This document shows positions 15,043 through 37,575 of a DNA stretch of 64,000 bases, one piece after another; position 1 is the first letter of the stretch, and each line of letters starts with the position of its first letter. The DNA comes from Candidatus Saccharicenans sp. GTDB taxonomy: Bacteria; Acidobacteriota; Aminicenantia; Aminicenantales; Saccharicenantaceae. The position numbers and the translations under genes were made by a program. The notes under the pieces are model-generated. The model ran no database searches, was not told the origin of the DNA, and saw nothing but the letters and a program-made list of their open reading frames with translations. The stretch spans positions 12,060 to 76,059 of the forward strand of contig JBASPX010000049.1 of the NCBI GenBank assembly GCA_049659625.1. Direction: 5' to 3'.

Positions 15043-16107
15043 GTGCTGGTCCTCAGGGACGGAACCGTCTTTGAGGGCAGAGGATTTGGAGCATGCGGTC
15101 GCACCTGGGGGGAAGTCGTTTTTAATACCGGGATGGTCGGGTATGTCGAAGCCCTGACCGACCCTTCTTACCACGGGCAGATTCTGGTCCAGTCCTTTCC
15201 GCTAATCGGTAACTATGGCGTCAATCCTGAAGATTTTGAATCAGAGCGCCCGCAGGTTAAGGGGTACGTGGTTTCAGATTACACAGAATATCCCTCGCAT
15301 CATTCTTCACGGAAAAGCCTGCGTCGCTGGCTCGAAGAACACCGCATCCCCGGGCTTTACGATATCGACACCAGAGCACTGGTTAAAAGGCTGCGGCATT
15401 ACGGTGTTATTCCCGGTCTTTTAGTGGTCTCAGAAAAACCAGTAAGAATCAAACCGCTGATAAAAGAAGCCAGAAGTTTGCCGGACCCGAACGCTCAAAA
15501 CCTGGTAGCTGAAGTCTCCACGCGCGATATCCACATATACAATCCCGAAGGCCGGAAAAGGGTGGTGCTCATTGACTGCGGTGTTAAGCGGGGGATCATT
15601 CGCAGCTTAATCTCCCGGGGGGTTTCGGTCGTCAGGGTGCCGGATGACTACCCGCCAGAAAAGATTCTGGAGTTCAACCCCGATGGTCTGGTCATTTCCA
15701 ACGGACCTGGCGATCCCGCACAATGCCGGGCGGTTCCGAACGTTATCGCTCTTCTGAAGCAAGACCTGCCGATACTGGGTATCTGCCTCGGCCATCAGAT
15801 TTTAGCCTTAGCCGCCGGCGCCAGGACCTTCAAGCTGAAATTTGGCCATCGATCCCAGAACCAGCCCTGTCTGGAAGAAGGAACCCGACGCTGTTACCTC
15901 ACCAGCCAGAATCACGGTTATGCCGTCGATGCCAGCACGCTTCCTTCTGACTGGTCAATCTGGTTTACAAACGCCAACGACGAAACGAATGAAGGAGTGA
16001 GGCATAAAAAGAGACCCATCCTTGGAGTTCAGTTTCACCCGGAAGCTTGCCCGGGACCGACCGACACCGATTTTATCTTCGACCTCTTTCTGGAGCAGCT
16101 CCGATGA
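15043..16107 (+). CDS. carA: Carbamoyl-phosphate synthase small (glutaminase) subunit
   Basis: 354 aa. LVLRDGTVFEGRGFGA N-terminus, catalytic PILGICLGHQ and VQFHPEA. The stop overlaps the carB ATG (ATGA). Confidence 0.95.
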   Translation: MLVLRDGTVFEGRGFGACGRTWGEVVFNTGMVGYVEALTDPSYHGQILVQSFPLIGNYGVNPEDFESERPQVKGYVVSDYTEYPSHHSSRKSLRRWLEEHRIPGLYDIDTRALVKRLRHYGVIPGLLVVSEKPVRIKPLIKEARSLPDPNAQNLVAEVSTRDIHIYNPEGRKRVVLIDCGVKRGIIRSLISRGVSVVRVPDDYPPEKILEFNPDGLVISNGPGDPAQCRAVPNVIALLKQDLPILGICLGHQILALAAGARTFKLKFGHRSQNQPCLEEGTRRCYLTSQNHGYAVDASTLPSDWSIWFTNANDETNEGVRHKKRPILGVQFHPEACPGPTDTDFIFDLFLEQLR

Positions 16108-19100
16108 AGAAAATAAAAAAAGTTCTTCTTCTCGGTAGCGGAGCCATAAAAATCGGCGAAGCCGGTGAGTTCGATTATTCCGGAAGTCAGGCGATAAAAG
16201 CCCTGAAAGAAGAAGGACTGGAGGTGGTCCTGGTCAACCCCAACATCGCCACCATTCAGACCTCCGAATTCCTGGCCGATAAAATTTATTTCCTCCCGGT
16301 CGAACCTTATTTTGTGGAAAAAATCATCGAAAAAGAAAACCCCGGGGCGATGATGATTTCTTTCGGCGGACAGACCGCCCTCAACTGCGGGCTCGCTCTG
16401 TGGAAAAAAGGTGTTCTGGACAAACATAGAATAGAAGTGCTCGGCACCAGCCTGGAATCGGTGGAAATTACCGAAGACCGCGGTCTGTTCAACCGAACTC
16501 TGATGGAAGCCGAGCTGAAAGTTCCTCGCGGACTCGCGGTGGAATCAGTTGAGGATGGGCTGAGAGCAGCTGAAGAGATCGGCTTTCCGGTAATGCTCCG
16601 CTCAGCTTTTGCTCTCGGGGGTAAGGGCAGTTTCCTCTGTTACAGAAAAGACGAACTTGAAGAGAAATTGCGGGTAGCTCTCTCCGAAACCCGCCAGGTT
16701 CTGGTCGAAGAATACCTCGAAGGCTGGAAGGAAATAGAATATGAGATCATTCGCGACCGGGCGGATAACTGCCTGGCCATCTGCAACATGGAAAATATCG
16801 ACCCGATGGGCATCCATACCGGCGAAAGCATCGTGGTCGCGCCATCTCAGACTTTAACCAACTCCGAATACCACCGCCTCAGGGAAATAGCTTTCCGGGC
16901 ACTCAGAAAATTGAACATCATCGGGGAATGCAACATTCAGTACGCTCTGAATCCGGAGAACGGCGACTACCGGATCATCGAAATAAACGCCCGTCTGTCT
17001 CGCTCCTCGGCTCTGGCCTCCAAAGCCACCGGATATCCCTTGGCCTTGATGGCCGCTAAATTAATGCTCGGTCATACTCTACCGGAGCTCAAAAATCCCG
17101 TCACCCGCGCCACCACTGCCTGCTCTGAGCCAGCTCTCGATTATGTCACGGTGAAGATACCGCGCTGGGACCTGAAAAAGTTCGCCCGCGTCTCCCGCAA
17201 GATCGGTTCGGAGATGAAATCCGTGGGCGAAGTCATGGCCATCGGCCGGAATTTTGAAGAGGCTCTGCAGAAAGCCCTGCGGATGCTCCAGATCGGGATG
17301 TACGGTTTTGTCGGCAACGAAAATTATTCTTTCAAAAACCTGGAAAAAGAACTATCGAATCCCACCGACGAAAGAATCTTCGGTATCGCCGAAGCTTTCA
17401 GGAAAGGCTGGTCAGTGGAAAAAGTTGCCAGTCTGACCAGAATTGACCCCTGGTTCCTGCACAGAATGAAAGACCTGGTGGAAATGGAAAAAAGGCTCCG
17501 CGGCTATTCTCTGAAGTCGATTCCGGATGAACTCCTGCTGGAAGCCAAGAAAAAGGGATTTTCAGACAAACAGATAGCTATTTTTACCTCAAGCAATGAA
17601 GCTGAGGTCAGGGAAAGACGTCGCCAGCTTAAAATCAGCCCTTCGGTCAAGCAGATCGACACGCTGGCTGCCGAATATCCGGCAAAAACAAATTATCTCT
17701 ACCTGACTTACAACGGACGGGAGGATGATGTGCGCTTCCGTCCATCCCGGAAAAAAATCATGGTGCTCGGCTCCGGACCGTACAGCATCGGCTCTTCTGT
17801 CGAGTTTGACTGGTGCGCCGTTAACACCGTGCGGGTTCTGCGCCAGCTAGGGTATCAGACGCTCATGGTGAATTACAATCCGGAAACCGTCTCCACCGAT
17901 TACGACATGTGCGACCGCCTGTACTTCGATGAACTCAGCTTCGAGCGAGTGCTGGACATATATGAAAAAGAAAAGCCGGCCGGGATCATAATCTCCATGG
18001 GCGGCCAGGTGCCCAACAACTTAGCCTTAAAACTTCATCAGGCCGGAGCGCGAGTCCTGGGCACCTCTCCGGAGAGCATCGACCGGGCGGAAGACCGCCA
18101 CAAATTTTCCCGCTTGCTGGATGAGCTGGGAATAGACCAGCCACCGTGGAAAGAAGCCACCAGCCTGGAGGAAGCCCGAAAATTCTGCGAACGAGTGGGC
18201 TATCCGGTCATCATCAGGCCTTCCTATGTGCTCAGCGGAGCCGCCATGAGCCTGGTGTTTGAAGAAAAGTCTCTGGAGACATACCTTAAAAAAGCATCTC
18301 TGATTTCTCCAGAGCATCCGGTGGTTATTTCCAAATTTATCACCGGGGCCAAAGAAATAGAGCTGGAAGCGGTGGCCAGCCGCGGTAAAATCGTAGCCTC
18401 GGCCATCATCGAACACATCGAGAATGCCGGTGTGCATTCCGGCGACGCCACCATGGTCCTGCCGCCTCAGAAGCTTTACCTTGAAACCATCCGGCGCGTT
18501 CGTCTGATCGGCGAAAAAATTGCCCGTGCGCTTAAAATAACCGGCCCGTTTAACCTGCAGCTTCTGGCCAGAGAGAACGAACTTAAAGTCATAGAATGCA
18601 ACCTCAGAGCATCACGCTCTCTTCCTTTCGTCTCGAAAGTTTCGCGGATTCCCTTCATCGAACTGGCGGTCAGAGCCATGCTTGGACTTCCTGTAAGTAA
18701 CAGCCGCTCGATATTTGAATTGAACCACGTCGGAGTTAAAGCCCCGCAGTTTTCTTTCTCCAGGTTGAAAGGAGCTGACCCGCGACTCGGCGTGGAAATG
18801 GCTTCTACCGGCGAGGTGGCCTGCCTGGGCGACGACCTTAACGAAGCACTTCTCAAAGCCATGCTGGCTGCCGGCTACAGGCTTCCGGAAAAATCGATTC
18901 TGTTGAGTCTCGGTGGTGAAAAAAACAAACAGAAATTTTTAGAAGCAGCCCGAATGTTAGAGAAAAACGGAATTAAAATTTACGCCACCGAAGGAACTTC
19001 CAGATTCTTAAAGCGCCACCGGATAGAAAACTTCAAACTTTTCAAGATACACGAAAAACGACAGCCCAATCTGCGGGATTACCTTCTGGAAAAAAGGTTG

Positions 19101-19109
19101 ATTTTGTGA
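16104..19109 (+). CDS. carB: Carbamoyl-phosphate synthase large subunit (first ~1001 aa; reading frame broken near the 3' end)
   Basis: Starts MKKIKKVLLLGSGAIKIGEAGEFDYSG at ATG 16104. The track ORF from 16047 is an upstream extension overlapping carA. Two ATP-grasp halves (IIEINARLSRSSALASKATGYPLA; VIECNLRASRSLPFVSK). Ends prematurely ...LLEKRLIL* after an A6 run. Confidence 0.95.
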   Translation: MKKIKKVLLLGSGAIKIGEAGEFDYSGSQAIKALKEEGLEVVLVNPNIATIQTSEFLADKIYFLPVEPYFVEKIIEKENPGAMMISFGGQTALNCGLALWKKGVLDKHRIEVLGTSLESVEITEDRGLFNRTLMEAELKVPRGLAVESVEDGLRAAEEIGFPVMLRSAFALGGKGSFLCYRKDELEEKLRVALSETRQVLVEEYLEGWKEIEYEIIRDRADNCLAICNMENIDPMGIHTGESIVVAPSQTLTNSEYHRLREIAFRALRKLNIIGECNIQYALNPENGDYRIIEINARLSRSSALASKATGYPLALMAAKLMLGHTLPELKNPVTRATTACSEPALDYVTVKIPRWDLKKFARVSRKIGSEMKSVGEVMAIGRNFEEALQKALRMLQIGMYGFVGNENYSFKNLEKELSNPTDERIFGIAEAFRKGWSVEKVASLTRIDPWFLHRMKDLVEMEKRLRGYSLKSIPDELLLEAKKKGFSDKQIAIFTSSNEAEVRERRRQLKISPSVKQIDTLAAEYPAKTNYLYLTYNGREDDVRFRPSRKKIMVLGSGPYSIGSSVEFDWCAVNTVRVLRQLGYQTLMVNYNPETVSTDYDMCDRLYFDELSFERVLDIYEKEKPAGIIISMGGQVPNNLALKLHQAGARVLGTSPESIDRAEDRHKFSRLLDELGIDQPPWKEATSLEEARKFCERVGYPVIIRPSYVLSGAAMSLVFEEKSLETYLKKASLISPEHPVVISKFITGAKEIELEAVASRGKIVASAIIEHIENAGVHSGDATMVLPPQKLYLETIRRVRLIGEKIARALKITGPFNLQLLARENELKVIECNLRASRSLPFVSKVSRIPFIELAVRAMLGLPVSNSRSIFELNHVGVKAPQFSFSRLKGADPRLGVEMASTGEVACLGDDLNEALLKAMLAAGYRLPEKSILLSLGGEKNKQKFLEAARMLEKNGIKIYATEGTSRFLKRHRIENFKLFKIHEKRQPNLRDYLLEKRLIL

Positions 19110-19291
19110 TTTCCGTTCCCGACCCGGGAAAACCGGCAGCCTTTGACTCCGATTATCGGATGAGGAGGCTGGCAGTGGACCTGGGTATCCCGGTCATCAC
19201 TAACCTGCAGTTAGCCGAGTCTCTGGTGAATGCTTTTGCCTCGAGAAAAATTGAAAGTCTCAAGATAAAATCCTGGGATGAATACGAGTGA
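19106..19291 (+). CDS. carB: C-terminal (MGS-like domain) fragment of carB in the +1-shifted frame
   Basis: ISVPDPGKPAAFDSDYRMRRLAVDLGIPVITNLQLAESLVNAF is the normal CarB C-terminus. Adding one A to 19090..19095 fuses it in frame to 16104..19109. Confidence 0.85.
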   Translation: MISVPDPGKPAAFDSDYRMRRLAVDLGIPVITNLQLAESLVNAFASRKIESLKIKSWDEYE

Positions 19292-19604: not shown

Positions 19605-22600
19605 ATGTCTGACCTGAAATCCCGTAAGCCAGAGGAAAAGGGTAAGACTCAAAAAACAGGTCCCATCTCCAGAAGAAAATTCCTTTCTTACGCCGGAATC
19701 CTTGGAACCGCACCGATAATCGGCCAGCTGCAGCAGATTCAGAAAAAGGTTCTTCCACAAAAACAGATAGTTCTGCCCCAGGCCGGTCTTTTGCTCAAAG
19801 CCTTCAGACCTGACGACCTGCTGCTTCTTGACTTTGAATTCCTGAACCTTAAACTGATCAACCTGCCGCGTCCACACCTGGTGCGGGAAAACCCGTCGCT
19901 TCCAGCCTACCTTATCGTACACCTTCCCCCTCAGAGCATTGCTGAAGAAGTTTTTTATGAGGCCAGCACTCCGGCTGAATCAGAAACGCCGAAGCCACCG
20001 CCTGTTTTCACCAGAATTTCCGGAGGAAGCCGGCTGGCTTTTTTAATACCCGACGAGATCAAAGAAATTCCCCTGACCCTGGAATCTCTTCTGGCCTGGC
20101 ATCTGTACCAGCCGAGCCTGGTGCCGGTGGCTCAAATTTTCCCCGAGCCGGGACCGAAAACAACTCCGGTCACTCAACTCTCAAAGAGTCGGCCATCTAC
20201 CGCTACCCGCTCACTCCTCACAAATACAGGTCCATCGACTCAGACTCTCTATTTGAAACGGAGTCGGCTCGCCCAGACGCAGGTTGGCACCTCTCTGAGA
20301 GCTTCTCTTAAACCTTCACCGCCGGAGAAACATCAGACCGCCATCGAATTTCCCTACCGGCTGATACTATCGCCCAACCCATACAATGTCTGGCTTCATT
20401 CCGCCGGCAAAGTCTCCACTGCTGGCTGGACTGAACTCTGGCACACCAGACTGGCCGCCCTGAATCCTGACGGCACGGTCAGCGAATCAGAAAGTCCCTA
20501 TCTGGCGGTCAGAGCGGTTTGGTCGCCTGACGTTGACCTGAATAATTTGTCCGGTCCGCCTAAGGAATCAAAACCGCGTCTGTCTTTGAGCCCGAATGAC
20601 CGACATCAGATTGTCCACCTCAGCAGCAATTTCACTCTTAAAAATCCTGACCAGAGTTTCTATGACCCCAGACCGGTTAAAGTCAACAGAATGATGCTCA
20701 GCTCTCTGGGAGCCTGGTTTGATTCTGCCGGCCACTGGAATCCAATGTCTCCTCTGTCGGTTACCACCTGGCAACATTTAGCCACCATTGGACGCGACCA
20801 TTTTGTCAGGGTGGTGTACAAGGGCTATCTTCTGCCGTTCGGACACCGGGCAGCTCTGGTGAAAGAGGTGGAAAGAAAATTTTATAAGTCTAAAGATGGA
20901 CAGAATATAGCTTACCTCTTCCAGAAAGAATACCTGATAATTCGCGATCCCGACAGGATTTTCCCCGCGCCCTTCCAGCCAAATGAAGGTCGGGATCTGC
21001 CTTTTAAGATGGTGAGAATAACCAGTAAAAAGACGCCACCGCTGGACGATCCGGAGAAAACGCCAGTCCTGCCCGACTCCGGGAGAGGCGCTTTCTGGCC
21101 AAAGGTTGGCGGAAAAGATTTTGAATTTCATGTGGTAGCCGTCGACCATGGTGGCCAGGAAATAGAGTTCCGCCTCCCGATGATTTTTATCGATAATGAA
21201 TACGCTTTCAACATCAATAAAATAAAACAGATTACCGGCACCTATAACTCAAAAGTATCGACCTCTCTGGAAAAAAGAAGACCGGCTCTGATGGGTCAGA
21301 GCATTACCTTTGCCCCGGAAAAAAGTAAAGGAGACACCGCTTTCGAAACCTATTACCTGACCTGGAAGTTGGTCGAAGCCGGACCGGGTTCCTCCAGCGA
21401 TGCCTTCCAGCTTCAGGATCAGCCAATGTGCTTCCCGGCACTCGAAGAAGCTGAAATTTCCATACCGGCGCTAAAAAACCTGGTCGGGTTTGAAACCACA
21501 AAGGTTCAATATGTCGAAGCCTACCTAAAAAACGGCTTTTCCTTTGCCGCTAACAAAGGCGAACTTCTTTTCCAGATTCGCTCGCTTCCCCGGGTGAATT
21601 TCGGGTCAGGCGGCAAGGCTGATAAAGCTGGCGGCATTGCCACCCCCAGCTTTTCCGTAGGAGGGCTTTCCAGAACGCTGGGTCCTGTAGGCACGCCGGA
21701 TGTAGACAAAGCGGTCGAAAAAATAATAGATGAGCTCAAGGAAGAACTGGCTTCGCAGCTGCCCGACCCGGAAGAGCTGGAAAAGGTGATCAGGGAGACG
21801 ATCGAAAATGAACTTCGGGAATATCTCCAGGGAATCCTGAACGACCTGCAGGCAGTAGCAAAAAAATTAAAAGACGAGCTTCAGAAAAAGTTTGGACTTG
21901 AAATTAAAGATGAACGCTTAAAAAACATTTTAAACAGCGCTGGCGAAGAACTGAAAAGCGCTTTCAACGAGGCCCTGAACGATATTATCAAGGGCACCTT
22001 CTCCCCCGAAAAATTTTTCAGCAAAGAAGCAAAAATTCTCGGTGGAATTCTGCTTAAAGATATCATCGACGAGGTGAATGATTTCACCGGTTCTGCCGAC
22101 AAAGATAAGGCGCTGAAGATTAAAAACGAGCAGGTTTACGAAAGCGACGGTAAAACTCCAGCCGGTATCAAGACCTTACTCAAATGGACACCTTCTGTCC
22201 ACGACTTTCTGATATTCATTGCCAGCCGCGACGGCGCCAGGTCTAAACTCACGCTCGATGCTGAAGCTATAACCTATTTCAACGGCAAAGAAGCCACATA
22301 CAAGGTCAAAGGCGAGCTGACTGATTTTACCCTGGACCTGATAAAAGGGATAAGCACTTTCATTCTGGTTAAATTCTCAAAATTCACCTTCATCTCCGAA
22401 AAGAGCAAAAAAACTAAAGTCGACCCGAAGATCGCTTCCATTGAATTTCGCGGGCCTTTAAAATTCATCAAAGAACTGCTGGATAAAATCCCGCTGCCCG
22501 GCGGCTTCAGCGGTAACGGCGGTTTCGGCGGACAACCGATAATCAAGGTGGACGCAGCCGGCGCGAAAATGGGTTATGTCCTGGCCATACCTGACGTGGC

Positions 22601-23165
22601 TTTCGGTGTTTTCACCCTGCAGAACCTGAAGTTCAGCGGAGAAATCCAGCTGCCGTTCGCTGGCGACCCGGTTTCTCTCAGGTTTGCCTTTAACGAAAAG
22701 AATAATCCCTTCCTGGTCACTGTTTCCATGTTTGGCGGTGGCGGCTTCTTCGCCATCGTGCTCCAGCCGCACGGAATAAAGCTGATAGAAGGGGCTCTGG
22801 AATTTGGCGGCAGTTTTGCCATGAACCTCGGTGTGGCCAGCGGCGGGGTCACCCTGATGGCCGGAATCTATTTCAAATACGAAGACGATGCCCTGACCCT
22901 CACCGGCTATGTCCGCTGCACCGGCGAGCTGGAGGTGCTGGGACTTATCAGCATCTCGGCTGAATTCTATCTCTCCCTGACCTATGAAGAAGCTGGCAAT
23001 CGGGTCTGGGGTCAGGCTTCTCTGACGGTAAAAGTCAAAGTCATCTTTTTCAGCACAAAAGTCACACTGAAAGTCGAACGCGAGTTCGGACATTCGCCCG
23101 CGCCGCTTTTCTGCGACCTGATGGAAGAGAAAGACTGGCTGGCTTACTGTGAAGCCTTTGCTTGA
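19605..23165 (+). CDS. Giant hypothetical protein 1 (1186 aa): Tat-type leader, central coiled coil, Gly-rich amphipathic-beta C-terminal module; no recognisable family
   Basis: Uninterrupted 3.56-kb ORF with SD AGGAG at 19594..19598 six nt before the ATG. SRRKFLS lies at aa 22-28. I can find no Walker A, HExxH, RHS/YD or tandem Ig-like repeats by eye. Confidence 0.85.
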   Translation: MSDLKSRKPEEKGKTQKTGPISRRKFLSYAGILGTAPIIGQLQQIQKKVLPQKQIVLPQAGLLLKAFRPDDLLLLDFEFLNLKLINLPRPHLVRENPSLPAYLIVHLPPQSIAEEVFYEASTPAESETPKPPPVFTRISGGSRLAFLIPDEIKEIPLTLESLLAWHLYQPSLVPVAQIFPEPGPKTTPVTQLSKSRPSTATRSLLTNTGPSTQTLYLKRSRLAQTQVGTSLRASLKPSPPEKHQTAIEFPYRLILSPNPYNVWLHSAGKVSTAGWTELWHTRLAALNPDGTVSESESPYLAVRAVWSPDVDLNNLSGPPKESKPRLSLSPNDRHQIVHLSSNFTLKNPDQSFYDPRPVKVNRMMLSSLGAWFDSAGHWNPMSPLSVTTWQHLATIGRDHFVRVVYKGYLLPFGHRAALVKEVERKFYKSKDGQNIAYLFQKEYLIIRDPDRIFPAPFQPNEGRDLPFKMVRITSKKTPPLDDPEKTPVLPDSGRGAFWPKVGGKDFEFHVVAVDHGGQEIEFRLPMIFIDNEYAFNINKIKQITGTYNSKVSTSLEKRRPALMGQSITFAPEKSKGDTAFETYYLTWKLVEAGPGSSSDAFQLQDQPMCFPALEEAEISIPALKNLVGFETTKVQYVEAYLKNGFSFAANKGELLFQIRSLPRVNFGSGGKADKAGGIATPSFSVGGLSRTLGPVGTPDVDKAVEKIIDELKEELASQLPDPEELEKVIRETIENELREYLQGILNDLQAVAKKLKDELQKKFGLEIKDERLKNILNSAGEELKSAFNEALNDIIKGTFSPEKFFSKEAKILGGILLKDIIDEVNDFTGSADKDKALKIKNEQVYESDGKTPAGIKTLLKWTPSVHDFLIFIASRDGARSKLTLDAEAITYFNGKEATYKVKGELTDFTLDLIKGISTFILVKFSKFTFISEKSKKTKVDPKIASIEFRGPLKFIKELLDKIPLPGGFSGNGGFGGQPIIKVDAAGAKMGYVLAIPDVAFGVFTLQNLKFSGEIQLPFAGDPVSLRFAFNEKNNPFLVTVSMFGGGGFFAIVLQPHGIKLIEGALEFGGSFAMNLGVASGGVTLMAGIYFKYEDDALTLTGYVRCTGELEVLGLISISAEFYLSLTYEEAGNRVWGQASLTVKVKVIFFSTKVTLKVEREFGHSPAPLFCDLMEEKDWLAYCEAFA

Positions 23166-23179
23166 AAGGGAGGACCACA

Positions 23180-26100
23180 ATGGCAAGGTCAACCATAATG
23201 TGGACTTTGTGTCCGGATGGGGTAAAGGACGGGAAACTGCGGTTTTCAGCCGCAGTCTCCATACGTCTGGAAGATGAAACCGGCGGGAAAACGCCCGGCC
23301 TCCACCTGTTTCCGGAAATTCTCAACTGGCCGGAAACGGTGAAATCCATCAACTTCGGCCTGCTGTATGAAAGGAAAACATCCCCCGAACCGCTCGAAGT
23401 GAAGCGACTCTCCCCCGACCCCGAGCTCGAACTCTGGCAGGCCATTTTCAGACCCGAAGCTCCGGTTTTCAATTTCAAGATGGCCGACCTGAGCAAGAAT
23501 CTGGTGGTATCCTATCCTGTCAGGAACGTCCTCACCTTCGTCGCTTCCCAGTACCTGAACGTGGCTTCCGAGTCGCCGGAAGAACCCCCGCCGATAGAAA
23601 AAGTCTTCCATACCGAAGGCCTGGCTCAAATCAGGCTTAAGCCGATCACCGAACCGAGGTTTGCCCGGACGGTTCAGCTGAGAACCACCACCCAGGTTAT
23701 GGCTCAGGCCGTCAGGCGGGAAGCTGAAAGCCAGAAATTCAGAGCGGTTCAGGTCTCGCCGCTCCCGCAGCCGCCAAAAGATTTCTTCCTGCTCAGAGAT
23801 TTCCACCGCCCGAAGAATAGAATTACCTTCGACCCGAAAACGAAACAGCCAATCGTCAGAAAAGTGCCCATCTCCAGACCGGAAATAGATTTCCATCAGG
23901 CTCTGGCTTTCCTCACCAACTATCCGGCCCTGATGAGACTCCTTGGGCTGGCCCTGGACTTTGAAGTCGACATTCCACCGGATTTTCCGGCGAACGGCTG
24001 GATAAAAATTGTGCCCGGCGACCGCAACGACCAGTGCCCGCGGACCGCTTACAATTTCGACCCGGCCCGCGGTGTGTTTGAAGCCGCAGCCAGAAAGAGG
24101 CCGCCGGAAATTGTCGGAGGATTCTTGAACCTGTCGGATGAGGAGCAGTACGACCTGGTCCAGCTGGATGTGGACTCCGTCGCGCTGAAGACAGCGGAAC
24201 TGGCCGATACGGCCGAGACCAGAACCAGAGCTGAACTTCCGGCTCTGCGCTCGAGCGGACTCGGTGTTGTTCGCCACGAGCAGGGAAAAAACATAGCTGA
24301 AGTTCTGGTCCGGGCGGTTGAGCTCAACAACGATTTCGTCCGAAAGAAAGAAATCACCCTATACGCCGAAGACCTGATTCAGGGTTACCGGGTAGACGTC
24401 TGGGACGAGAAAACAAGAACCTGGCACTCTCTCTGCCAGCGAATCGGAACTTATAAATTCCTCCGGATCGACCGTGAGCTGACACTGGAAGATGAAGGTT
24501 TTATCTCTCCGACCGTCACCCAATCGGCCGATGAATCATCGGACGATATCTTCGCTCATGAAGCGCTTTTTCACTGGGATGGCTGGAGCCTGGTAGCGCC
24601 GCGGCCCGGAAAAACAATCGACCCGAACGACAGCCCGCAATCGATCGAAAACAAAGCGATGACCGATTTCCTGCTGGAAACGAGATTCAAGCCAAAACCC
24701 GGTTCATTGCCGAGATTGCGGTACGGAGTCGGCTACAGGTTGAGAGCCAGGGCGGTGGACCTTGCCGGCAATTCCCAGCCTCTGGAGAATCCCGACGACA
24801 GTTGCGCCATCCCGCCTCCTTCAAAACCTCCCTTTGTTTTCTCCAGGTTCGACCCGGTGCCTTCCCCGCTGGTGATACTCCGGGAGGCGCCCAAAAGTGG
24901 CGAAGACGTCGACCACGTGGTGATTAAAAGCTACAACGACTCCCCGGCGAAAGATGCCGTTCCCACCGATCAGGTAGCTGACCGTCATCTTGCTCCGCCG
25001 AAAATCTCCCAGCTCGACTGTGAATTCCATGGTTTATTTGACAGCCCATCCGGTCTGAAGCCTGAAGTCTACTCTCTTATCTGCCAGAGAGACCCGGGTC
25101 AATTCAAAGAGCTGGAACCGGGTGAGCAGTTAGAACTTCCGTATTTTCCTGATCCCTGGGCTCGAGGCGTCTGCATCAGAGGACTTCCCTACGGGTCGCC
25201 TGACCCGATGCTGATCGAATTCTCCGGAGACTGGTCGGATTTTCGTCCTTTCAGAATAAGACTTCAGGAAGGCAGTCAACCGGCTCGCTGGGACGAAGCA
25301 AAACGTCTTCTGACCATCTATCTTAAAAAAGGCGAATCGGTCACCCTTAAACTCAGCTGCTATTTTCCGGAAAGATTTCTGGCAGTTCAGGGTCTGTACC
25401 GCTGGCTGGAGAAACCGGAAAGGATCATTCCTCAGAAAGTTCTAAAGCCGCCTCGCGGATTGCCCGAAGGCCAGATTCAGGTTTTAAGAACCCTTCAGCC
25501 GCCACGGATAGATCTAAACAAACTCAGGACATTATCCATTCAGGGCCGCAACTGGCTGATGACCCCCTTCCGTGAAATAACTCTCATTCATGCCACACTT
25601 CAGCCTGTCGGCACCCCCCGGTCAAGGTTTATGGCGGCCGAAAGACAGCTCGGCCAGACTTCTGCCGTTCTGTTCGGAGAATTTGAAATCCACGGGCCCA
25701 GCACTTCCAAAGCAGAGCTTCTGGCCTCCTGGCAGGAACCTGTGGATTACATCCACGAGTCCGGCCCCAGAACCATTCAGGGAAAAGCTCATGTGCTCGA
25801 ATTCAAAATTGACCCTGGCATGAATCTTCTTACTTTAACACCCGGAGATCAAGCCAGCACACCCTCTAAGTCCGGGCAGTCTCAACTGCAATTCAAGCCT
25901 CCGGTTACCGCCATGGCCCCGGCCAGACGCCAACCGGTTTACCGTCACGAATTTGGAGATACCAAATTCAGACGGGTAAATTACCGCCTGGTCTGCGCCA
26001 CCAGATACATGGAACAATTTCCCGAGGATGAAATCCCGGAGGGAGTTGAATATGCCAGAACGAGCGACCCGGTGGAAGTTAAAGTGTTGAACACAGCACC

Positions 26101-27166
26101 GCCGGCGATTCCAAAAATCGTCTACATTGTTCCTTCCTTCAAATGGGAGAGAAGCAAGAAAGGCACACAGATTTCAAGCCTGAGAAAGACAGCTCTGCGT
26201 ATTTACCTGGAAAGACCGTGGTATTCGTCGGGTGAAGGGGAACTGCTGGCGGTAATCCTGCCGCCCGGAATAACGGTCACACCCAGGAAGGCAGCCGCCA
26301 CCACTGTCAGTTCCGCCTCCACTGCTCAGACTGCCGGCAAAATTCAACCCCAGATTCAGCGAAAGACGATTCCCTCGGCTGTTTCCATCAGCATACCGCC
26401 GGTGGCTGAAAGGTACAAACCTTATGTAACCATGTGGGGAGCAGACCCCATATGGAAGTCTGGACCGGTTGCCCCTCCTGAATATCCCCTGCCCGACGCT
26501 TTCCCCTCGGCTGTGGAAATAATGGGAGAGCTGCCGCTTCTGGAGTTGCCGGAAGATAGAAAATTCATCGCTGTCGGACACAGGGTTGAATACGACGAAG
26601 AGCGTCGCCTGTGGTTCTGTGACCTGGAGCTCGACTCCGGTCAGGCATATTTCCCCTTCATCAGGCTGGCCCTGGCCAGGTTCCAGCCGAATTCGGTGCC
26701 GGGCGCCCATCTTTCCCAGGTGGTGGTGGCCAATTTTGCCCAGATTCTGCCGGAAAGAAACCTCGTGGTTACCTTCAACCCGGCCAATCTAACACAGATA
26801 AACATAATGCTGTCAGGAGTTTCCTACCTTCAGGGATATGGCGGAAGCGGTCCGGGCGAAGTGGAAGTGGCTTTAGAGAGCAAAAAACTGAATCTCCCGG
26901 ATGAACTCGGCTGGGAACCGGTAAAAGAAGCTGTGATTACCCTGAAACCTCAGAGGGACGGAGGAGCCGAGGCTGGCTCGTTCACCTGGCAGGGAACTCT
27001 CAAGATTCCTTCCGGACTTAAACCGCAGGATTATAGAATAACCATCCGCGAATACGAGCTTTTTGACACCGACGAAATCGATAAGACGACCATAACTGTC
27101 GCTGCTGTTCCTAAAAAATATAGAAGATTGGTTTATGCCGAAACCATAAAGCTTGTCGACCTGTAA
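23180..27166 (+). CDS. Giant hypothetical protein 2 (1328 aa): Pro-rich, no signal peptide, no recognisable family; translationally coupled to protein 1
   Basis: ATG 23180 is preceded by GGGAGG (23168..23173) and lies 14 nt after the stop of the upstream gene. The track start at 23162 is a TTG inside the upstream gene's end. The ORF is an uninterrupted 3.99 kb. Confidence 0.85.
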   Translation: MARSTIMWTLCPDGVKDGKLRFSAAVSIRLEDETGGKTPGLHLFPEILNWPETVKSINFGLLYERKTSPEPLEVKRLSPDPELELWQAIFRPEAPVFNFKMADLSKNLVVSYPVRNVLTFVASQYLNVASESPEEPPPIEKVFHTEGLAQIRLKPITEPRFARTVQLRTTTQVMAQAVRREAESQKFRAVQVSPLPQPPKDFFLLRDFHRPKNRITFDPKTKQPIVRKVPISRPEIDFHQALAFLTNYPALMRLLGLALDFEVDIPPDFPANGWIKIVPGDRNDQCPRTAYNFDPARGVFEAAARKRPPEIVGGFLNLSDEEQYDLVQLDVDSVALKTAELADTAETRTRAELPALRSSGLGVVRHEQGKNIAEVLVRAVELNNDFVRKKEITLYAEDLIQGYRVDVWDEKTRTWHSLCQRIGTYKFLRIDRELTLEDEGFISPTVTQSADESSDDIFAHEALFHWDGWSLVAPRPGKTIDPNDSPQSIENKAMTDFLLETRFKPKPGSLPRLRYGVGYRLRARAVDLAGNSQPLENPDDSCAIPPPSKPPFVFSRFDPVPSPLVILREAPKSGEDVDHVVIKSYNDSPAKDAVPTDQVADRHLAPPKISQLDCEFHGLFDSPSGLKPEVYSLICQRDPGQFKELEPGEQLELPYFPDPWARGVCIRGLPYGSPDPMLIEFSGDWSDFRPFRIRLQEGSQPARWDEAKRLLTIYLKKGESVTLKLSCYFPERFLAVQGLYRWLEKPERIIPQKVLKPPRGLPEGQIQVLRTLQPPRIDLNKLRTLSIQGRNWLMTPFREITLIHATLQPVGTPRSRFMAAERQLGQTSAVLFGEFEIHGPSTSKAELLASWQEPVDYIHESGPRTIQGKAHVLEFKIDPGMNLLTLTPGDQASTPSKSGQSQLQFKPPVTAMAPARRQPVYRHEFGDTKFRRVNYRLVCATRYMEQFPEDEIPEGVEYARTSDPVEVKVLNTAPPAIPKIVYIVPSFKWERSKKGTQISSLRKTALRIYLERPWYSSGEGELLAVILPPGITVTPRKAAATTVSSASTAQTAGKIQPQIQRKTIPSAVSISIPPVAERYKPYVTMWGADPIWKSGPVAPPEYPLPDAFPSAVEIMGELPLLELPEDRKFIAVGHRVEYDEERRLWFCDLELDSGQAYFPFIRLALARFQPNSVPGAHLSQVVVANFAQILPERNLVVTFNPANLTQINIMLSGVSYLQGYGGSGPGEVEVALESKKLNLPDELGWEPVKEAVITLKPQRDGGAEAGSFTWQGTLKIPSGLKPQDYRITIREYELFDTDEIDKTTITVAAVPKKYRRLVYAETIKLVDL

Positions 27167-33370: not shown

Positions 33371-36300
33371 CTATCTCACATAAATTTCATCAAAAAGCAT
33401 CCAGACTTTCTGTCCGGCGTTGCGGAAACCTTCAGGAACAACGCCGGCGCTGGCAGCTTTGAGGCGAACAAACCTGGCCTCCGACCCCCGGAGTGAGACA
33501 TACAGGGATTTAACCCCGGCCGTACCGGGCTTTTCCGGCAAAGGAAATTCCTTTTCGGCCGCTTTTTCAAACTTCCGCCCGTCAACCGACACCTCCACCA
33601 CCACCTTAACCGGCAGGAAAATCCGGGCGTTGTGATTTTCAAAGCAGCTGAGCTCAAGTTCATAGAGGTCAAGTTTGCGGCCGAGATCCAGAACGACCTC
33701 CAGATCGTTTCCTTCATATCCCTGCCAGGCCGGGTCTCTGGCCTCAGCCCGCGCTTTAACCAGATCAACAAGGGTTTTTTCTGCGGCCGCTCCGGGCCTG
33801 GAAGGAGACGGAGCGCTGAAGTAGATAATATCTTTAACCGGATAGGACTGGCTGTAATAAGCCGCGGCCACGGGGCTCGGCTGACGTTTCGGATGAAAAG
33901 CCATCGCTTTGAGAACTGCTGTTCCTTTGATGGTAATCGGTCCTTGATAGACTGGAGATTTCTCCGTCGGCTCGCTGCCGTCGAGCGTGTAGTGAATTTC
34001 CGCTCCCTCCAGCGGCACCGAAATGGTCACGCTGGCTGGTTCTGACGGACTGACATAGGCTTTAGGGGGATTGATCACCGGAGCCGGAACCACCGCCCAT
34101 CTTTCGTAATCAGCCGGGTCCCTCTCCAGAACATCAAAAAGCTGGCTGACCGCCTGGCTGGCATCGTTCTCGTTTCTGGCGACGCTCATGGCGAGAATTT
34201 TGATCTTCGGGTTTGAAGGAAGCGTAACTTCACGCACGCCGGCAGGCAGGTCAAAAGCATACTTGAACACGTAACCATATATGTAAGGCTCATTTCCTTC
34301 TGCTGGATGATGCAGATGGGTGGTGAAGAAAGCCACGTTATCCTGTCTGGTGTATCCTGGAACCACGCCGGTGTAAGTATATTTCTCGCGGTCAAAATCG
34401 ATGCTGGCGGCCGGTCCTTCGGCCCAGGTCCGGTTATCCCACTGGCCGATAAAACCTGACCAGAAAGCCACCGAAATTTCAACCGGCGTCTGACCGATCC
34501 TGAATTCGCCTTTCTGATTTTCTTCCGATGCCGCTGCCAGGATATACAGGCGGTTGTAATCGCCTTCGGGAAGGGTAATAGCCTGTCCCTGGCAGGCTAC
34601 GGCGTTTTTAGCCCCGTCCTCCTTCGGTCCAAGTTCAAATTTTACGCTGTCGACGACGATGGAATCAGGAATCAACTCAGCCGGATAAGTGCGGCGGTCA
34701 GCATCAAAAGAACCGTCCTTTCTGTTATGATCATAACTGAAGATGTCCAGGTTGTAAGGAAGCTTTACCGGAGAAGACGGAGGAAGTTCCAGCCTGGCGG
34801 CCGGTGCCTGAAGTTTCAGAGCAAAAGTCTTAATACCGTACGGATTCAGGTCAAAAATAACGCGGCCATCTTTCACCTGGACCGGACCTATCTCTTCTTC
34901 CACCCCGTTGACTTCCCTTGCTGAAACCACTGGAGCGATGAAGGACAGCGAGACCTTCTTCAGACTCTTTCCGGTCGTTTCCACCAGCCGGATGATCACT
35001 TCATCCGAGTTTTCCGCCTTTTTGACGGCAGAAATTCTGATATTTTCCTCGCTCAAACGGAGAAAAGACAGGCTGCGACCTAACCTGCCCTCATGGGGAA
35101 TCGTCTGAAATGCCAGCAGCGGCTGATTCAGACGCAGCGCCTGCTGAACGGTATTTCCCTGGCGCCAGTCTCCCTGATGCCCGTAAACAGCATACAGAAT
35201 TTCGTGGCGTCCAAAATCCTGGGTGGCCTGCTCTCCGGGCCAGGAACGCACTCCTGGAGTGTAAAGAAGCGTCAGTCTCAGCATATTATCGGACGGTTTG
35301 TCTGAACCGTACTTGCAATCCTCCAGGATGGAGACGCCGTAGCTGCCGCTCTTATCAGTCAGGTCGAACCAGAGGTGTGAAGGCACTTCAAACTTTTTCG
35401 GGTCGTTATTACCGCGCTGCACCGTCCCGAGACCCCAGCTGTAAGTGGCCAGCGGGTTGGAAACGGTCAGGGGAAAGGCTGCTTTCAGGGAAGATTCTCT
35501 CGTCGCCCAGTCTATCTGGTTGTAAAATTCAACCCGGTCTCCGGCACTCCCGGCCGCCAGTCTGACCACCTGAACAAACCGGGAACCCCGGGTTTCCCTC
35601 TCTATCTCCACCGCCACTCTGGCTGGCCCGTTCTCCACCACCCTGATTTTTGCCGGGCCTGATACATAGCCGGACGGAGGCTTCATCCGATCTTCCCAGT
35701 CCATATTCCAGGCCGGCCACTGCTGCGGCTTTTCGTAATGAAACGACAGCCGGGCAGCCGAAGCCAGAATCTCCCGGCCAGCTTTTTTATCGTAAATGCT
35801 GGAGACATCGCCATCCCTGTTAATCTTCACCACATACCGGCTGTTTTCCACCACTTCCGGACTGACTTTAAGTCCGGTGTTAAGACGGCAGGGCTCAGGC
35901 GACGGTCTCAGGTCATAAACGGCAAAACCCACCGAAGGAACTTTCGCCAGAAAAACAAATTTTATTTTCTGGCCTTTTCTCTCGATAACCTGAGAGGGAA
36001 CTTCCATTCCATCAGGGCCAAAAATCCTTATGAATTCGGCAGAGACGGGAAGCGTAATTTCGGCTTCGACCGCATCCTCCCGATCAAAGGTCAGCGGGTT
36101 ATAGACAACCAGCGGGAGGCCGCTTACCCTCGTATCCAGCATTCTGATAACCGCTCCGGCTACATCTTTGAGCACGCTGCTGAACAGGTTGGCTGCCAGC
36201 ACCTCATCGTTCCAGGAAAATTCGTAAGCTCTGGGAATGCTCGTACCGGGGAGAATATCATGAAACTGAGCGCCGAGAACCAGGCGCCAGGCCTCATTGA

Positions 36301-37387
36301 TTTTTTCCCGGTTGTAGACAGCCCCGCCGAGCCAGTCAGCCAGCACCGCAGCCGCTTCCGCCGAATATCCGAGAAACTCATTCTTGCGATTCCAGCGCTT
36401 CATCGCGGCCTGGGAAGTGATGGACCCGGCCGAATGATTGGTCAGCAAAAATTCTCCCGTGTAAGAAGGCAACTTCTTTTTCTGAGCTTCATTCAGACTG
36501 TTGAAAAATTCATCCGCCTTAGCCGAGACCACTTTCAGGTCGGCCTGCTGGCTGCTCTGAATGCTCAGCTCGAGATTCCTGACGGAATTTTCGTCAGGTG
36601 CTCCACCGACATCACCAGTTCCAAAGTACATATAATCGGCAAAAACTCCGTATTTCTGTCCGTTTTCGTTTACTCTGAGCCTCCAGGTCTGGTTCTGAGT
36701 AAGGTCTCCGGTAATCTTTCCGGTGTAATCCCCCGGGTTGAGCGCCGCAGCCACATACTGACCGTCAGGACCGTACCAGACTCCGATGTTGAAGGGAATG
36801 CCAACAGCCGACCCCCAGCTGAGCTTCTGGGTGGAAAAGCCCTTCAAACCGCAGTGAGCCAGGATCGAGGGCAGAGAGGCCGGGAACCCGAAGCAATCGG
36901 GTAACATGTACTCCTTGCTGCTGAAACCGAATTCCTTCTTAAAAAACTCCGTGCCGTAAAGTATCTGCCTGATTATAGATTCAAAAGAAGGAGCCATCAC
37001 GTCGTTTTCTTCCATCGAAGAACCGGACGGAAACCAGCGTCCGGCTGCCACGTATTTTTTTACCAATTGATACTGTTCCGGATAATATTCCTTCATCATC
37101 AGGTAACGATTGGCGCCGCTGAAGTTAAACACATAATTCGGATACTTCTCAAAAAGGGCAAAATTGTCCACCATGGTGTTCCAGATGTATTCTTTTATCG
37201 TCTTCTGATAATCCCACCGCCACTGGGTATCGAGATGAGCGTAACCAACCGTGAACAATACTTTTTCCCGGCTCATGTCGTATTTACTCTGGGAAAAACC
37301 GATTCCGTTTAAAAGGATCAACCAGCCTGAAATTAAAACAACCGAAAAAATCATCATCTTTTTAACTGAAAGGAATCTCTGAATCAT
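33371..37387 (-). CDS. GH38 alpha-mannosidase with C-terminal chitobiase/Fn3-associated and F5/8 type C (discoidin)-like domains
   Basis: GYAHLDTQWRWDY and YMLPDCFGFPASLPSILAHCG (GH38 core). C-terminus has EIHYTLDGSEPTEKSPVYQGPITIKGTAVLKAMAF followed by a discoidin-like tail. I prefer ATG 37387 (SD GAGGAG) over the track start 37426. Confidence 0.85.
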   Translation of the reverse strand: MIQRFLSVKKMMIFSVVLISGWLILLNGIGFSQSKYDMSREKVLFTVGYAHLDTQWRWDYQKTIKEYIWNTMVDNFALFEKYPNYVFNFSGANRYLMMKEYYPEQYQLVKKYVAAGRWFPSGSSMEENDVMAPSFESIIRQILYGTEFFKKEFGFSSKEYMLPDCFGFPASLPSILAHCGLKGFSTQKLSWGSAVGIPFNIGVWYGPDGQYVAAALNPGDYTGKITGDLTQNQTWRLRVNENGQKYGVFADYMYFGTGDVGGAPDENSVRNLELSIQSSQQADLKVVSAKADEFFNSLNEAQKKKLPSYTGEFLLTNHSAGSITSQAAMKRWNRKNEFLGYSAEAAAVLADWLGGAVYNREKINEAWRLVLGAQFHDILPGTSIPRAYEFSWNDEVLAANLFSSVLKDVAGAVIRMLDTRVSGLPLVVYNPLTFDREDAVEAEITLPVSAEFIRIFGPDGMEVPSQVIERKGQKIKFVFLAKVPSVGFAVYDLRPSPEPCRLNTGLKVSPEVVENSRYVVKINRDGDVSSIYDKKAGREILASAARLSFHYEKPQQWPAWNMDWEDRMKPPSGYVSGPAKIRVVENGPARVAVEIERETRGSRFVQVVRLAAGSAGDRVEFYNQIDWATRESSLKAAFPLTVSNPLATYSWGLGTVQRGNNDPKKFEVPSHLWFDLTDKSGSYGVSILEDCKYGSDKPSDNMLRLTLLYTPGVRSWPGEQATQDFGRHEILYAVYGHQGDWRQGNTVQQALRLNQPLLAFQTIPHEGRLGRSLSFLRLSEENIRISAVKKAENSDEVIIRLVETTGKSLKKVSLSFIAPVVSAREVNGVEEEIGPVQVKDGRVIFDLNPYGIKTFALKLQAPAARLELPPSSPVKLPYNLDIFSYDHNRKDGSFDADRRTYPAELIPDSIVVDSVKFELGPKEDGAKNAVACQGQAITLPEGDYNRLYILAAASEENQKGEFRIGQTPVEISVAFWSGFIGQWDNRTWAEGPAASIDFDREKYTYTGVVPGYTRQDNVAFFTTHLHHPAEGNEPYIYGYVFKYAFDLPAGVREVTLPSNPKIKILAMSVARNENDASQAVSQLFDVLERDPADYERWAVVPAPVINPPKAYVSPSEPASVTISVPLEGAEIHYTLDGSEPTEKSPVYQGPITIKGTAVLKAMAFHPKRQPSPVAAAYYSQSYPVKDIIYFSAPSPSRPGAAAEKTLVDLVKARAEARDPAWQGYEGNDLEVVLDLGRKLDLYELELSCFENHNARIFLPVKVVVEVSVDGRKFEKAAEKEFPLPEKPGTAGVKSLYVSLRGSEARFVRLKAASAGVVPEGFRNAGQKVWMLFDEIYVR

Positions 37388-37575
37388 GGCTTTGCTCCTC
37401 TCTTTATTATCGATATGAACAAACAAAAATTAATCTTTTTACCATAAAAGTGTCAATCGACCGCAGACGAAAAACGCGCCACCAGACCGAACAAATCGGC
37501 ACGGTCTTACAGACATTGTCTTACACAGAAACAAAACTTTGAAAACTGAAAAAGTTTTTTGAGTTCAGATTTTTT

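Follow-up and report, generated by a model that had tools for sequence, protein, structure and literature searches.

Within a 64,000-nucleotide stretch of DNA from Candidatus Saccharicenans sp. (phylum Acidobacteriota; contig JBASPX010000049.1, positions 12,060 to 76,059 of the forward strand; hereafter the 'window'), two giant genes, here named P1 and P2, follow each other directly on the same strand and raise the question of what kind of system they encode. They had been singled out from the letters of the DNA alone, in what we call the original prediction, as a tightly coupled pair of 'ORFans' and as the best candidate for an undescribed system, possibly an exported or envelope-associated complex. 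Our finding is that P1 and P2 constitute an obligate co-directional pair wherever the DNA reaches far enough, and that searches of Pfam, NCBIfam, PADLOC, PHROGs and PDB, and by Foldseek, assign this pair to no described family. We suggest, with a probability of roughly 0.4, that P1 and P2 form an exported heterocomplex of the envelope or cell surface, in which P1 is targeted to the pathway of twin-arginine translocation (Tat) and P2 'hitchhikes' on P1.

Both genes are real and non-chimeric, since independent assemblies hold copies that are 93–99% identical (P0121, L016); an assembly chimera, which had been named as a way in which the candidate might dissolve, is thus rejected. Comparison with two relatives yields ratios of nonsynonymous to synonymous substitutions (dN/dS) of 0.09–0.21 for P1 and 0.06–0.16 for P2, and both genes are under purifying selection.

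The predicted status as an undescribed system holds against every library searched. Profile searches of Pfam, NCBIfam, PADLOC and PHROGs returned for P1 only coiled-coil noise over residues 687–826, and for P2 nothing; in PADLOC-DB v2 the sole match of P1 is to LeoA (E = 0.0015, residues 704–816, again coiled-coil noise), with none for P2, and the PHROG matches of both proteins are non-significant (all E ≥ 0.17). Twelve further relatives and giants have no Pfam match, and no match to the conserved parts recurred when 52 C-terminal domains of P1 homologues and 33 P2 homologues were scanned singly. Over all proteins searched, six long P1 homologues and four rhizobial giants included, the profile matches amounted to coiled-coil noise and to Ig, lectin or adhesive domains added on. 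PDB sequence and profile searches with P1 and P2 likewise gave nothing, hhalign of P1 against P2 shows no relationship between the two, and a published description of either family was not found in the literature searched. The motif absences claimed in the original prediction were reproduced by regular-expression searches of both proteins, which found no Walker A, HExxH, LPXTG, lipobox or YD-repeat motif, and neither a CxEQ thioester nor a GxSxG motif. Finally, confident whole-chain AlphaFold2 models (P1, and residues 1–1200 of P2; 78- and 80-sequence alignments) were compared by Foldseek with PDB and BFVD. In PDB, P1 retrieved only porins, LptD, MTP and SlpA (E ∼3e-4; template modelling (TM) score ≤0.29) and P2 retrieved multi-sandwich proteins of the TEP1/A2M, integrin and arrestin type (TM ≤0.33, and ≤0.2 in the 40 best-ranked matches), and the BFVD matches of P1 are equally weak. 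We reject these matches as fold assignments, as they are of a generic long-strand or multi-sandwich kind with TM ≤0.33.

The designation 'ORFan', in contrast, must be abandoned for both proteins. Searched exhaustively with phmmer, 1.84 billion cluster representatives (50%-identity cluster level) contained 4611 relatives of P1 at E ≤ 1e-3, 2403 of them at E ≤ 1e-30, and a word-indexed search retrieved >1200 proteins for P1 and >200 for P2. When one genome per species was scanned, P1 was found in at least 583 of 185,579 species, a lower bound, and in more than 10 phyla. Among the matches listed, the closest relatives of the pair are labelled Candidatus Saccharicenans, which makes that lineage the most likely source of the window; carriers comprise Aminicenantes and other Acidobacteriota, Gemmatimonadota, Myxococcales, Alpha- and Betaproteobacteria, Kapaibacterium, Ignavibacteria and Chlorobiota lineages, Balneolales and Rhodothermales, the Verrucomicrobiota-type genera Opitutus, Horticoccus and Didemnitutus, and Actinomycetota, including several Streptomyces. 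Plasmid records with the module include megaplasmids of the Bacillus cereus group, plasmids of Rhizobium, Cupriavidus metallidurans CH34 and Diaphorobacter, and linear plasmids of Streptomyces. All annotated copies are named 'hypothetical protein'.

Whether the two genes belong together was assessed at 87 loci. In 81 of them, P1 is followed by a P2 homologue in the same orientation, co-occurrence and gene order being checks that the original prediction had proposed; the remaining six are at contig ends, where the DNA stops within about 830 nt (≤∼830 nt) beyond the P1 match, so that P2 is uncheckable there. The pair of the window shares its gene order with the other 80 loci holding both genes, and carries the elements by which we define the module, that is, an N-terminal core with ELWHTRL and GRDHYVRVVYKGYLFPFGHRA, a C-terminal domain with FGGGGFF...GVASGGV...YCxAFA, and a P2 gene directly 3', the motifs showing minor substitutions in this copy. 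The aligned P1 and P2 regions are mostly 10–60 nt apart (up to ∼1 kb in a few Streptomyces loci), and pairwise distances of P1 and P2 are correlated with r = 0.97 (65 loci; r = 0.65 among distant pairs). The flanking genes vary from phylum to phylum. The locus is syntenic in Aminicenantes, where carAB and a photolyase gene flank the pair (carB is its neighbour at 15 loci, the photolyase at 12). Because of this synteny, and of the variable flanks elsewhere, the module is inherited vertically in Aminicenantes and is patchy and often plasmid-borne in other lineages. It is tempting to regard the module as ancient, self-contained and horizontally mobile, acting outside the cytoplasm with P1 and P2 as its two obligate subunits, a view to which we give somewhat less than even odds.

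Accessory genes were found at about 20 loci (Kapaibacterium, Ignavibacteria, Chlorobiota, Balneolales and metagenome-assembled genomes of Alphaproteobacteria), where two extra Pfam-poor genes sit 3' of the pair or divergently upstream. Both encode N-terminal signal peptides, as judged from reading the sequences. One product (∼650 residues) combines its signal peptide with a coiled coil, a region resembling an outer-membrane β-barrel and an aromatic final residue; the other is secreted and comprises a conserved β-domain ('QPPPNQLRxADLW') followed by variable RCC1 or propeller modules. Examples of such loci are L030 (17740–21740), L038 (17712–21725), L049, L050, L053, L058, L060, L065, L068, L070 and L074. 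At a further locus, in a 4.4-Mb genome, four tandem paralogous genes lie directly 3' of the pair (L003, 19089–22262), and encode Cys-containing proteins of 188–295 residues with signal-peptide-like N-termini and no Pfam match.

The model of P1 (mean predicted local distance difference test (pLDDT) score 82.8, predicted TM score (pTM) 0.72) comprises a leader, a β-rich N-terminal core, a helical segment and a C-terminal β-domain. The core has pLDDT values mostly >90 and is alignable across all phyla sampled. Four helices are predicted over residues 700–795, and it is this segment that the original prediction had read as a coiled coil. The linker in which it lies has a median length of 10 residues in 243 homologues and is longest in the window copy (101 residues), and alignment with close relatives reveals an insertion of ∼76 residues that is lineage-specific. 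The coiled coil is therefore no feature of the family, and we reject it as a functional hallmark. At the same site, P1 versions of 3039–3052 residues on conjugative plasmids of rhizobia carry a helical insert of ∼900 residues; P2-like genes are likewise located downstream of these giant P1 genes, which occur, for example, on S. meliloti pC (L092, 5371–14529) and on an A. vitis plasmid (L093, 5875–14994) and encode a canonical Tat signal. The S. meliloti pair adjoins virB11 and the gene of a type IV secretion system coupling protein.

In the C-terminal domain, modelled over residues 838–1161, antiparallel strands of up to 19 residues are connected by turns that are all tight, and a terminal helix follows. 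The predicted Gly-rich β-module was recovered, with residues 976–1165 containing 12.6% Gly. Within the domain, hydrophobicity and conservation both peak in a β-hairpin whose tetraglycine turn is near-invariant, and the strands of residues 1078–1161 display a hydrophobic face (Kyte-Doolittle +1.8 to +3.1) versus a polar one (−1.1 to −2.7). P2 was correctly foreseen as a Pro-rich protein without signal peptide (9.7% Pro; N-terminus not hydrophobic). Its model (pLDDT 86.4, pTM 0.72) is of a mixed architecture, β-sandwich plus helical, in which the family consensus N-terminus MxxQTIxWTALPNG lies within a confidently folded hairpin and not in a hydrophobic leader; a signal peptide is never present on P2 across the family. 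The portion beyond about residue 1013 is separable, with one homologue (P0224) ending at the equivalent of that residue. Relatives of P2 bear Laminin_G_3, repeated ASH/Ig-like, Big_3_5, fn3 and pAdhesive_15 (ice-binding-like adhesive) domains, which are typical extracellular modules.

Three criteria served to evaluate the P1 leader: the S/T-R-R-x-F-L-K motif, an h-region of mild hydrophobicity, and a match to the curated signal model TIGR01409 or PF10518. As to the Tat-type leader of the original prediction, a Tat-like motif is present: SRRKFL is found at residues 22–27 (nt 19668–19685) and is followed by SYAGILGTAPIIG, in a leader that is disordered in the model save for a helix at residues 23–33, over the twin-arginine (RR) motif. 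Its profile score lies below the TIGR01409 cut-off. In the family at large, [ST]RRx-hydrophobic followed by a hydrophobic stretch occurs in 56 of 78 P1-like open reading frames (ORFs), and TIGR01409 TAT_signal is the only or leading match for seven of the eight N-termini tested, three of which (23.8, 18.2 and 17.7 bits) exceed the cut-off. The P1 relative of S. meliloti possesses a textbook Tat signal (TRRDFL...ALA-AE). A bipartite leader is seen in long P1 relatives of 1400–1800 residues, with 'M..RLNLxxLR' at residues 4–12, '[ST]RRxxxG' at a fixed distance from it (about residues 38–41), and thereafter an N-terminal domain of 400–590 residues (for example P0068, P0074, P0092 and P0100; L030–L075). 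The RLNLxxLR motif might be a chaperone-binding site; P1 of the window has neither this motif nor the additional domain.

Taken together, the Tat-like leaders of the P1 family, the extracellular-type domains of P2 relatives and the accessory genes of secreted or outer-membrane type suggest that an exported or envelope location, as originally predicted, is the best-supported reading. A putative P1–P2 complex has indirect support from the strict adjacency of the two genes and from their correlated divergence. The complex, its dependence on Tat and its membrane engagement are inferred, as is its biological role, which would lie either in surface structure or adhesion or in membrane attack. In such a scheme, P1 and P2 would be made from one transcript at about 1:1, because P2 has its own ribosome-binding site and a spacer of 14 nt separates the genes. 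The leader of twin-arginine type would direct P1 to the cytoplasmic membrane (in diderms), and signal-less P2 would bind P1 in the cytoplasm and cross as a 'hitchhiker'. The Gly-rich amphipathic C-terminal β-domain of P1, with its hydrophobic GGGG hairpin, may then interact with a membrane or lipid surface. The outward-facing binding subunit may be P2, which in other lineages bears additional domains (Ig-like, fn3, lectin-like or adhesive).

Nearest to such a route among known systems are the hitchhiker heterodimers of the Tat pathway, for example HybO/HybC of E. coli hydrogenase-2 and DmsA/DmsB (Rodrigue et al. 1999, as cited in PMC6708511). Shared with these are adjacent, co-transcribed genes, a twin-arginine leader on one partner only, and a leaderless partner that is nonetheless expected outside the cytoplasm. 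P1 and P2 differ from them in having no cofactor-binding domains and no homology to HybO/HybC or DmsA/DmsB, in the absence of the P1 leader from monoderms and the unusual bipartite leader of many relatives, and in a predicted cargo of ∼281 kDa (≥330 kDa in rhizobia), whereas the reported upper size is ∼150 kDa.

Several observations weigh against the proposed exported heterocomplex. The window P1 leader scores 13.7 bits on TIGR01409 (E = 0.064; cut-off 16.7), gives no match to Pfam TAT_signal, and has no AxA cleavage site. The RR leader is missing in relatives from Bacillus, Streptomyces and other Actinomycetota, and Cupriavidus; given these RR-less relatives, Tat targeting is an add-on and no inherent part of the core function. 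For Tat cargo, a maximum of about 150 kDa is given (PMC6708511), and this limit is exceeded by P1 and P2 together, by the long P1 relatives and by the rhizobial ones, of which that of S. meliloti alone amounts to 331 kDa. Unless the leader serves as a signal anchor, these would be the largest Tat substrates on record. With TM ≤0.29, the Foldseek matches suggestive of contact with a membrane or lipid do not establish a fold. Moreover, the neighbours of the pair resemble a defence island in two Bacillus loci, a context unseen in other phyla. The further proposal, that a fully folded complex of ∼280 kDa (with P1 alone >330 kDa in rhizobia) is exported through Tat by hitchhiking and represents a new envelope or surface machine, appears to us unlikely.

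A secreted two-component membrane-active toxin, with P2 binding a receptor and P1 inserting its Gly-rich hydrophobic β-hairpins into a target membrane, is a rival reading. The GGGG hairpin and the long amphipathic strands of P1 resemble membrane-inserting elements, β-barrel porins are the sole high-probability Foldseek matches to P1, relatives of P2 bear variable binding modules, and the pair is found on plasmids of the Bacillus cereus group, Streptomyces and rhizobia. With Tc (ABC) and binary pore-forming toxins, P1 and P2 share very large co-transcribed subunits, often plasmid-borne in Bacillus and Streptomyces, and a hydrophobic element of P1 that might insert into membranes. However, neither TcA, TcB and RHS domains nor YD repeats nor a variable toxic tip are present, and we reject Tc membership as Pfam and NCBIfam give no VRP1, neuraminidase-like, TcB-binding, SpvB or RHS domain and PDB no match in sequence, profile or fold. 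A toxin is, in our view, distinctly unlikely, considering that (i) Pfam, NCBIfam and PDB provide no homology to toxin families, (ii) the C-terminus of P1 is near-invariant across phyla, and neither a variable toxin tip nor a neighbouring immunity-like gene is found, (iii) tight turns connect all long P1 strands, and the TM scores of the porin matches are only 0.2–0.29, and (iv) the stable, syntenic chromosomal locus of Aminicenantes is under strong purifying selection, a pattern unusual for toxins. If the pair were instead a machine for lipid handling or envelope biogenesis, with amphipathic sheets and helices of P1 binding or shuttling lipids like lipid-transfer or AsmA/LptD-type proteins, its patchy occurrence (in 583 or more of 185,579 species) and its location on plasmids in many hosts would ill suit a core envelope function; the module also occurs in monoderm bacteria. 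We deem this reading a long shot. What speaks for it is the one hydrophobic face on the long C-domain strands, the coarse β/helical/amphipathic-β layout that P1 shares with large lipid-transfer and LptD/AsmA-like proteins, and weak Foldseek matches to microsomal triglyceride transfer protein, ApoB100, LptD and TULIP-like P47, which, however, have TM <0.15 and Foldseek probabilities ≤0.25 and are not accompanied by sequence homology. Matches to Apolipoprotein A1/A4/E (best E = 1.3e-7) and to ApoLp-III, each in 9 of 52 members and located in helical inserts beside the C-terminal domain, and an apolipoprotein-type match of window P1 itself at E = 0.019 point in the same direction, yet they sit in variable, lineage-specific inserts, of which the helical part of P1 is one, and are typical compositional matches of coiled coils.

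The Bacillus loci prompt the reading as a cytoplasmic system, such as an undescribed anti-phage or anti-plasmid defence, in which the RR segment would be a structural or membrane-tethering motif. In B. thuringiensis (L001, 3378–7165 and 19913–24179), a Gabija-like OLD-family ATPase plus UvrD helicase, a DEAD/ResIII helicase and an integrase adjoin the pair, and its surroundings on a B. tropicus plasmid (L090) contain HNH endonuclease, helicase and HD-domain genes; leaderless P1 versions exist, and the module is patchy and horizontally mobile. Such a role is nevertheless very improbable in the light of the extracellular-type domains of P2 relatives, accessory genes that are secreted or of outer-membrane type, a highly conserved, vertically inherited and syntenic locus in Aminicenantes, and the lack of nuclease, ATPase or other effector motifs in P1 and P2. 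PADLOC offers no match beyond coiled-coil noise, and membership in a known anti-phage defence system of PADLOC-DB v2 is rejected in the absence of a significant model match for either protein. Essentially excluded is the reading that the pair is what domestication has left of a phage's tail or host-recognition apparatus, P2 being akin to a J-like tip-attachment protein or to a tail fibre. Neither P1 nor P2 has a tblastn match in 50,697 phage genomes, no P1 relative is found in 2.9 million IMG/VR viral contigs, PHROGs yield no significant match, and the conserved neighbourhoods are without phage or tail genes; a phage origin of the pair, as well as its membership among phage tails or contractile injection systems, is rejected on these grounds. 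The weak BFVD matches of P1 to models of tail fibre and host specificity protein J have TM ≤0.12, which leaves the Ig-like, fn3 and lectin-like domains on P2 relatives, frequent in phage tail proteins, as the other point in favour of that origin.

Two further assignments were considered and rejected. Type V secretion, for which we looked for a Sec signal, a C-terminal outer-membrane barrel of 12 or 16 strands, a terminal aromatic β-signal and confinement to diderms, resembles P1 in the order of leader, β-rich passenger-like domain, linker (helical here) and long-strand C-terminal domain, the latter giving weak Foldseek matches of porin or autotransporter type. The P1 leader, however, is Tat-like and not of Sec type, the turns are tight throughout, the protein ends in a helix (...YCEAFA) devoid of a terminal aromatic β-signal, and the family extends to bacteria that lack an outer membrane (Bacillus and Streptomyces). 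Pfam autotransporter and POTRA domains are absent from window P1 and from the 52 homologous C-terminal domains; the helical C-terminus, the missing Pfam Autotransporter match, the monoderm relatives and the porin TM scores of ≤0.29 together rule out membership. Similarly, α-2-macroglobulin/TEP proteins, the top Foldseek matches of P2, are like P2 long (∼1300–1500 residues) and built from strings of β-sandwich domains, but TM is ≤0.09 and the Foldseek probability 0.2–0.7. With no CxEQ motif and no recurrent A2M match among the 33 P2 homologues in Pfam (a single bMG3 match at E = 0.27), P2 is not counted among the α-2-macroglobulin or thioester proteins.

The P1 superfamily is covered neither by a Pfam or NCBIfam model nor by a solved structure. 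Should an exported P1–P2 complex be confirmed, a superfamily of ∼4600 clusters from >10 phyla, devoid of structural or functional precedent, would be defined, and a large 'dark' superfamily with members in culturable Bacillus, Streptomyces, Rhizobium and Cupriavidus would obtain a location and a working hypothesis. A Tat hitchhiker complex of ∼280 kDa would roughly double the accepted limit of cargo size, and members of 130–330 kDa with textbook Tat signals, along with a signal-less partner of ∼150 kDa, would make the size question for folded Tat cargo testable. The diderm versions (Tat-like leader and N-terminal extension) and the leaderless monoderm versions would then represent a natural experiment on delivery across different envelopes. 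If membrane attack or adhesion were the function, applied interest would also attach to the copies on plasmids of bacteria associated with insects, plants and soil.

Table 1. Features of the P1–P2 gene pair in the window (positions of the window; residues of the respective protein).
Feature	Residues	Position	Strand	Remarks
Shine-Dalgarno-like AGGAG of P1		19594..19598	+	6 nt 5' of P1 start codon
P1 gene		19605..23165	+	ATG start, 1186 aa, 131.5 kDa
P1 leader	1-59	19605..19781	+	Tat-like motif, then mildly hydrophobic SYAGILGTAPIIG
P1 β-rich N-terminal core	60-697	19782..21695	+	signature motifs ELWHTRL and GRDHFVRVVYKGYLLPFGHRA
P1 helical insert	698-797	21696..21995	+	insertion in variable linker; 'coiled coil' of the original prediction
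P1 C-terminal β-domain	798-1186	21996..23162	+	ends in near-invariant W..YC.AFA tail
P1 GGGG β-hairpin	1036-1054	22710..22766	+	FLVTVSMF-GGGG-FFAIVLQ
P2 ribosome-binding site GGGAGG		23168..23173	+	inside 14-nt P1–P2 spacer
P2 gene		23180..27166	+	ATG start, 1328 aa, 149.6 kDa; Pro-rich, without signal peptide
P2 disordered linker	891-916	25850..25927	+	pLDDT <50
P2 disordered low-complexity linker	1034-1071	26279..26392	+	pLDDT <50

Both ORFs, and the signals between them, are located where they had been placed beforehand (Table 1), with the TGA stop codon of P1 at 23163–23165 and the ATG of P2 at 23180, after a gap of 14 nt. An alternative TTG start at 23162 would extend P2 to 1334 residues; its relatives begin at the ATG instead. 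Scans for promoters and terminators in the pair region performed no better than on shuffled sequence, and no meaningful tandem repeats were found in the P1/P2 region. The description of housekeeping neighbours, flank-like composition and no mobility genes nearby agrees with our checks: carA and carB lie 5' of the pair and genes for a photolyase and an SRPBCC-type protein 3', the GC content of the pair (0.49–0.55) compares with 0.45–0.54 for the whole window, and neither an integrase nor a transposase gene is found near the pair in the window.

The neighbouring carB (16047–19291) itself appears frameshifted. Its ORF stops at 19109, and the MGS-like C-terminus (the last ∼55–65 residues) continues in another frame to a TGA at 19289–19291, with the switch of frame, around 19090–19140, adjoining a run of six A. 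An assembly or sequencing error is most likely, and it could be a real frameshift. Farther downstream, on the reverse strand and unrelated to the pair, the window encodes a GH38 α-mannosidase of 1351 residues with chitobiase/Fn3-associated C-terminal domains (33371–37426), which fits a saccharolytic lifestyle.

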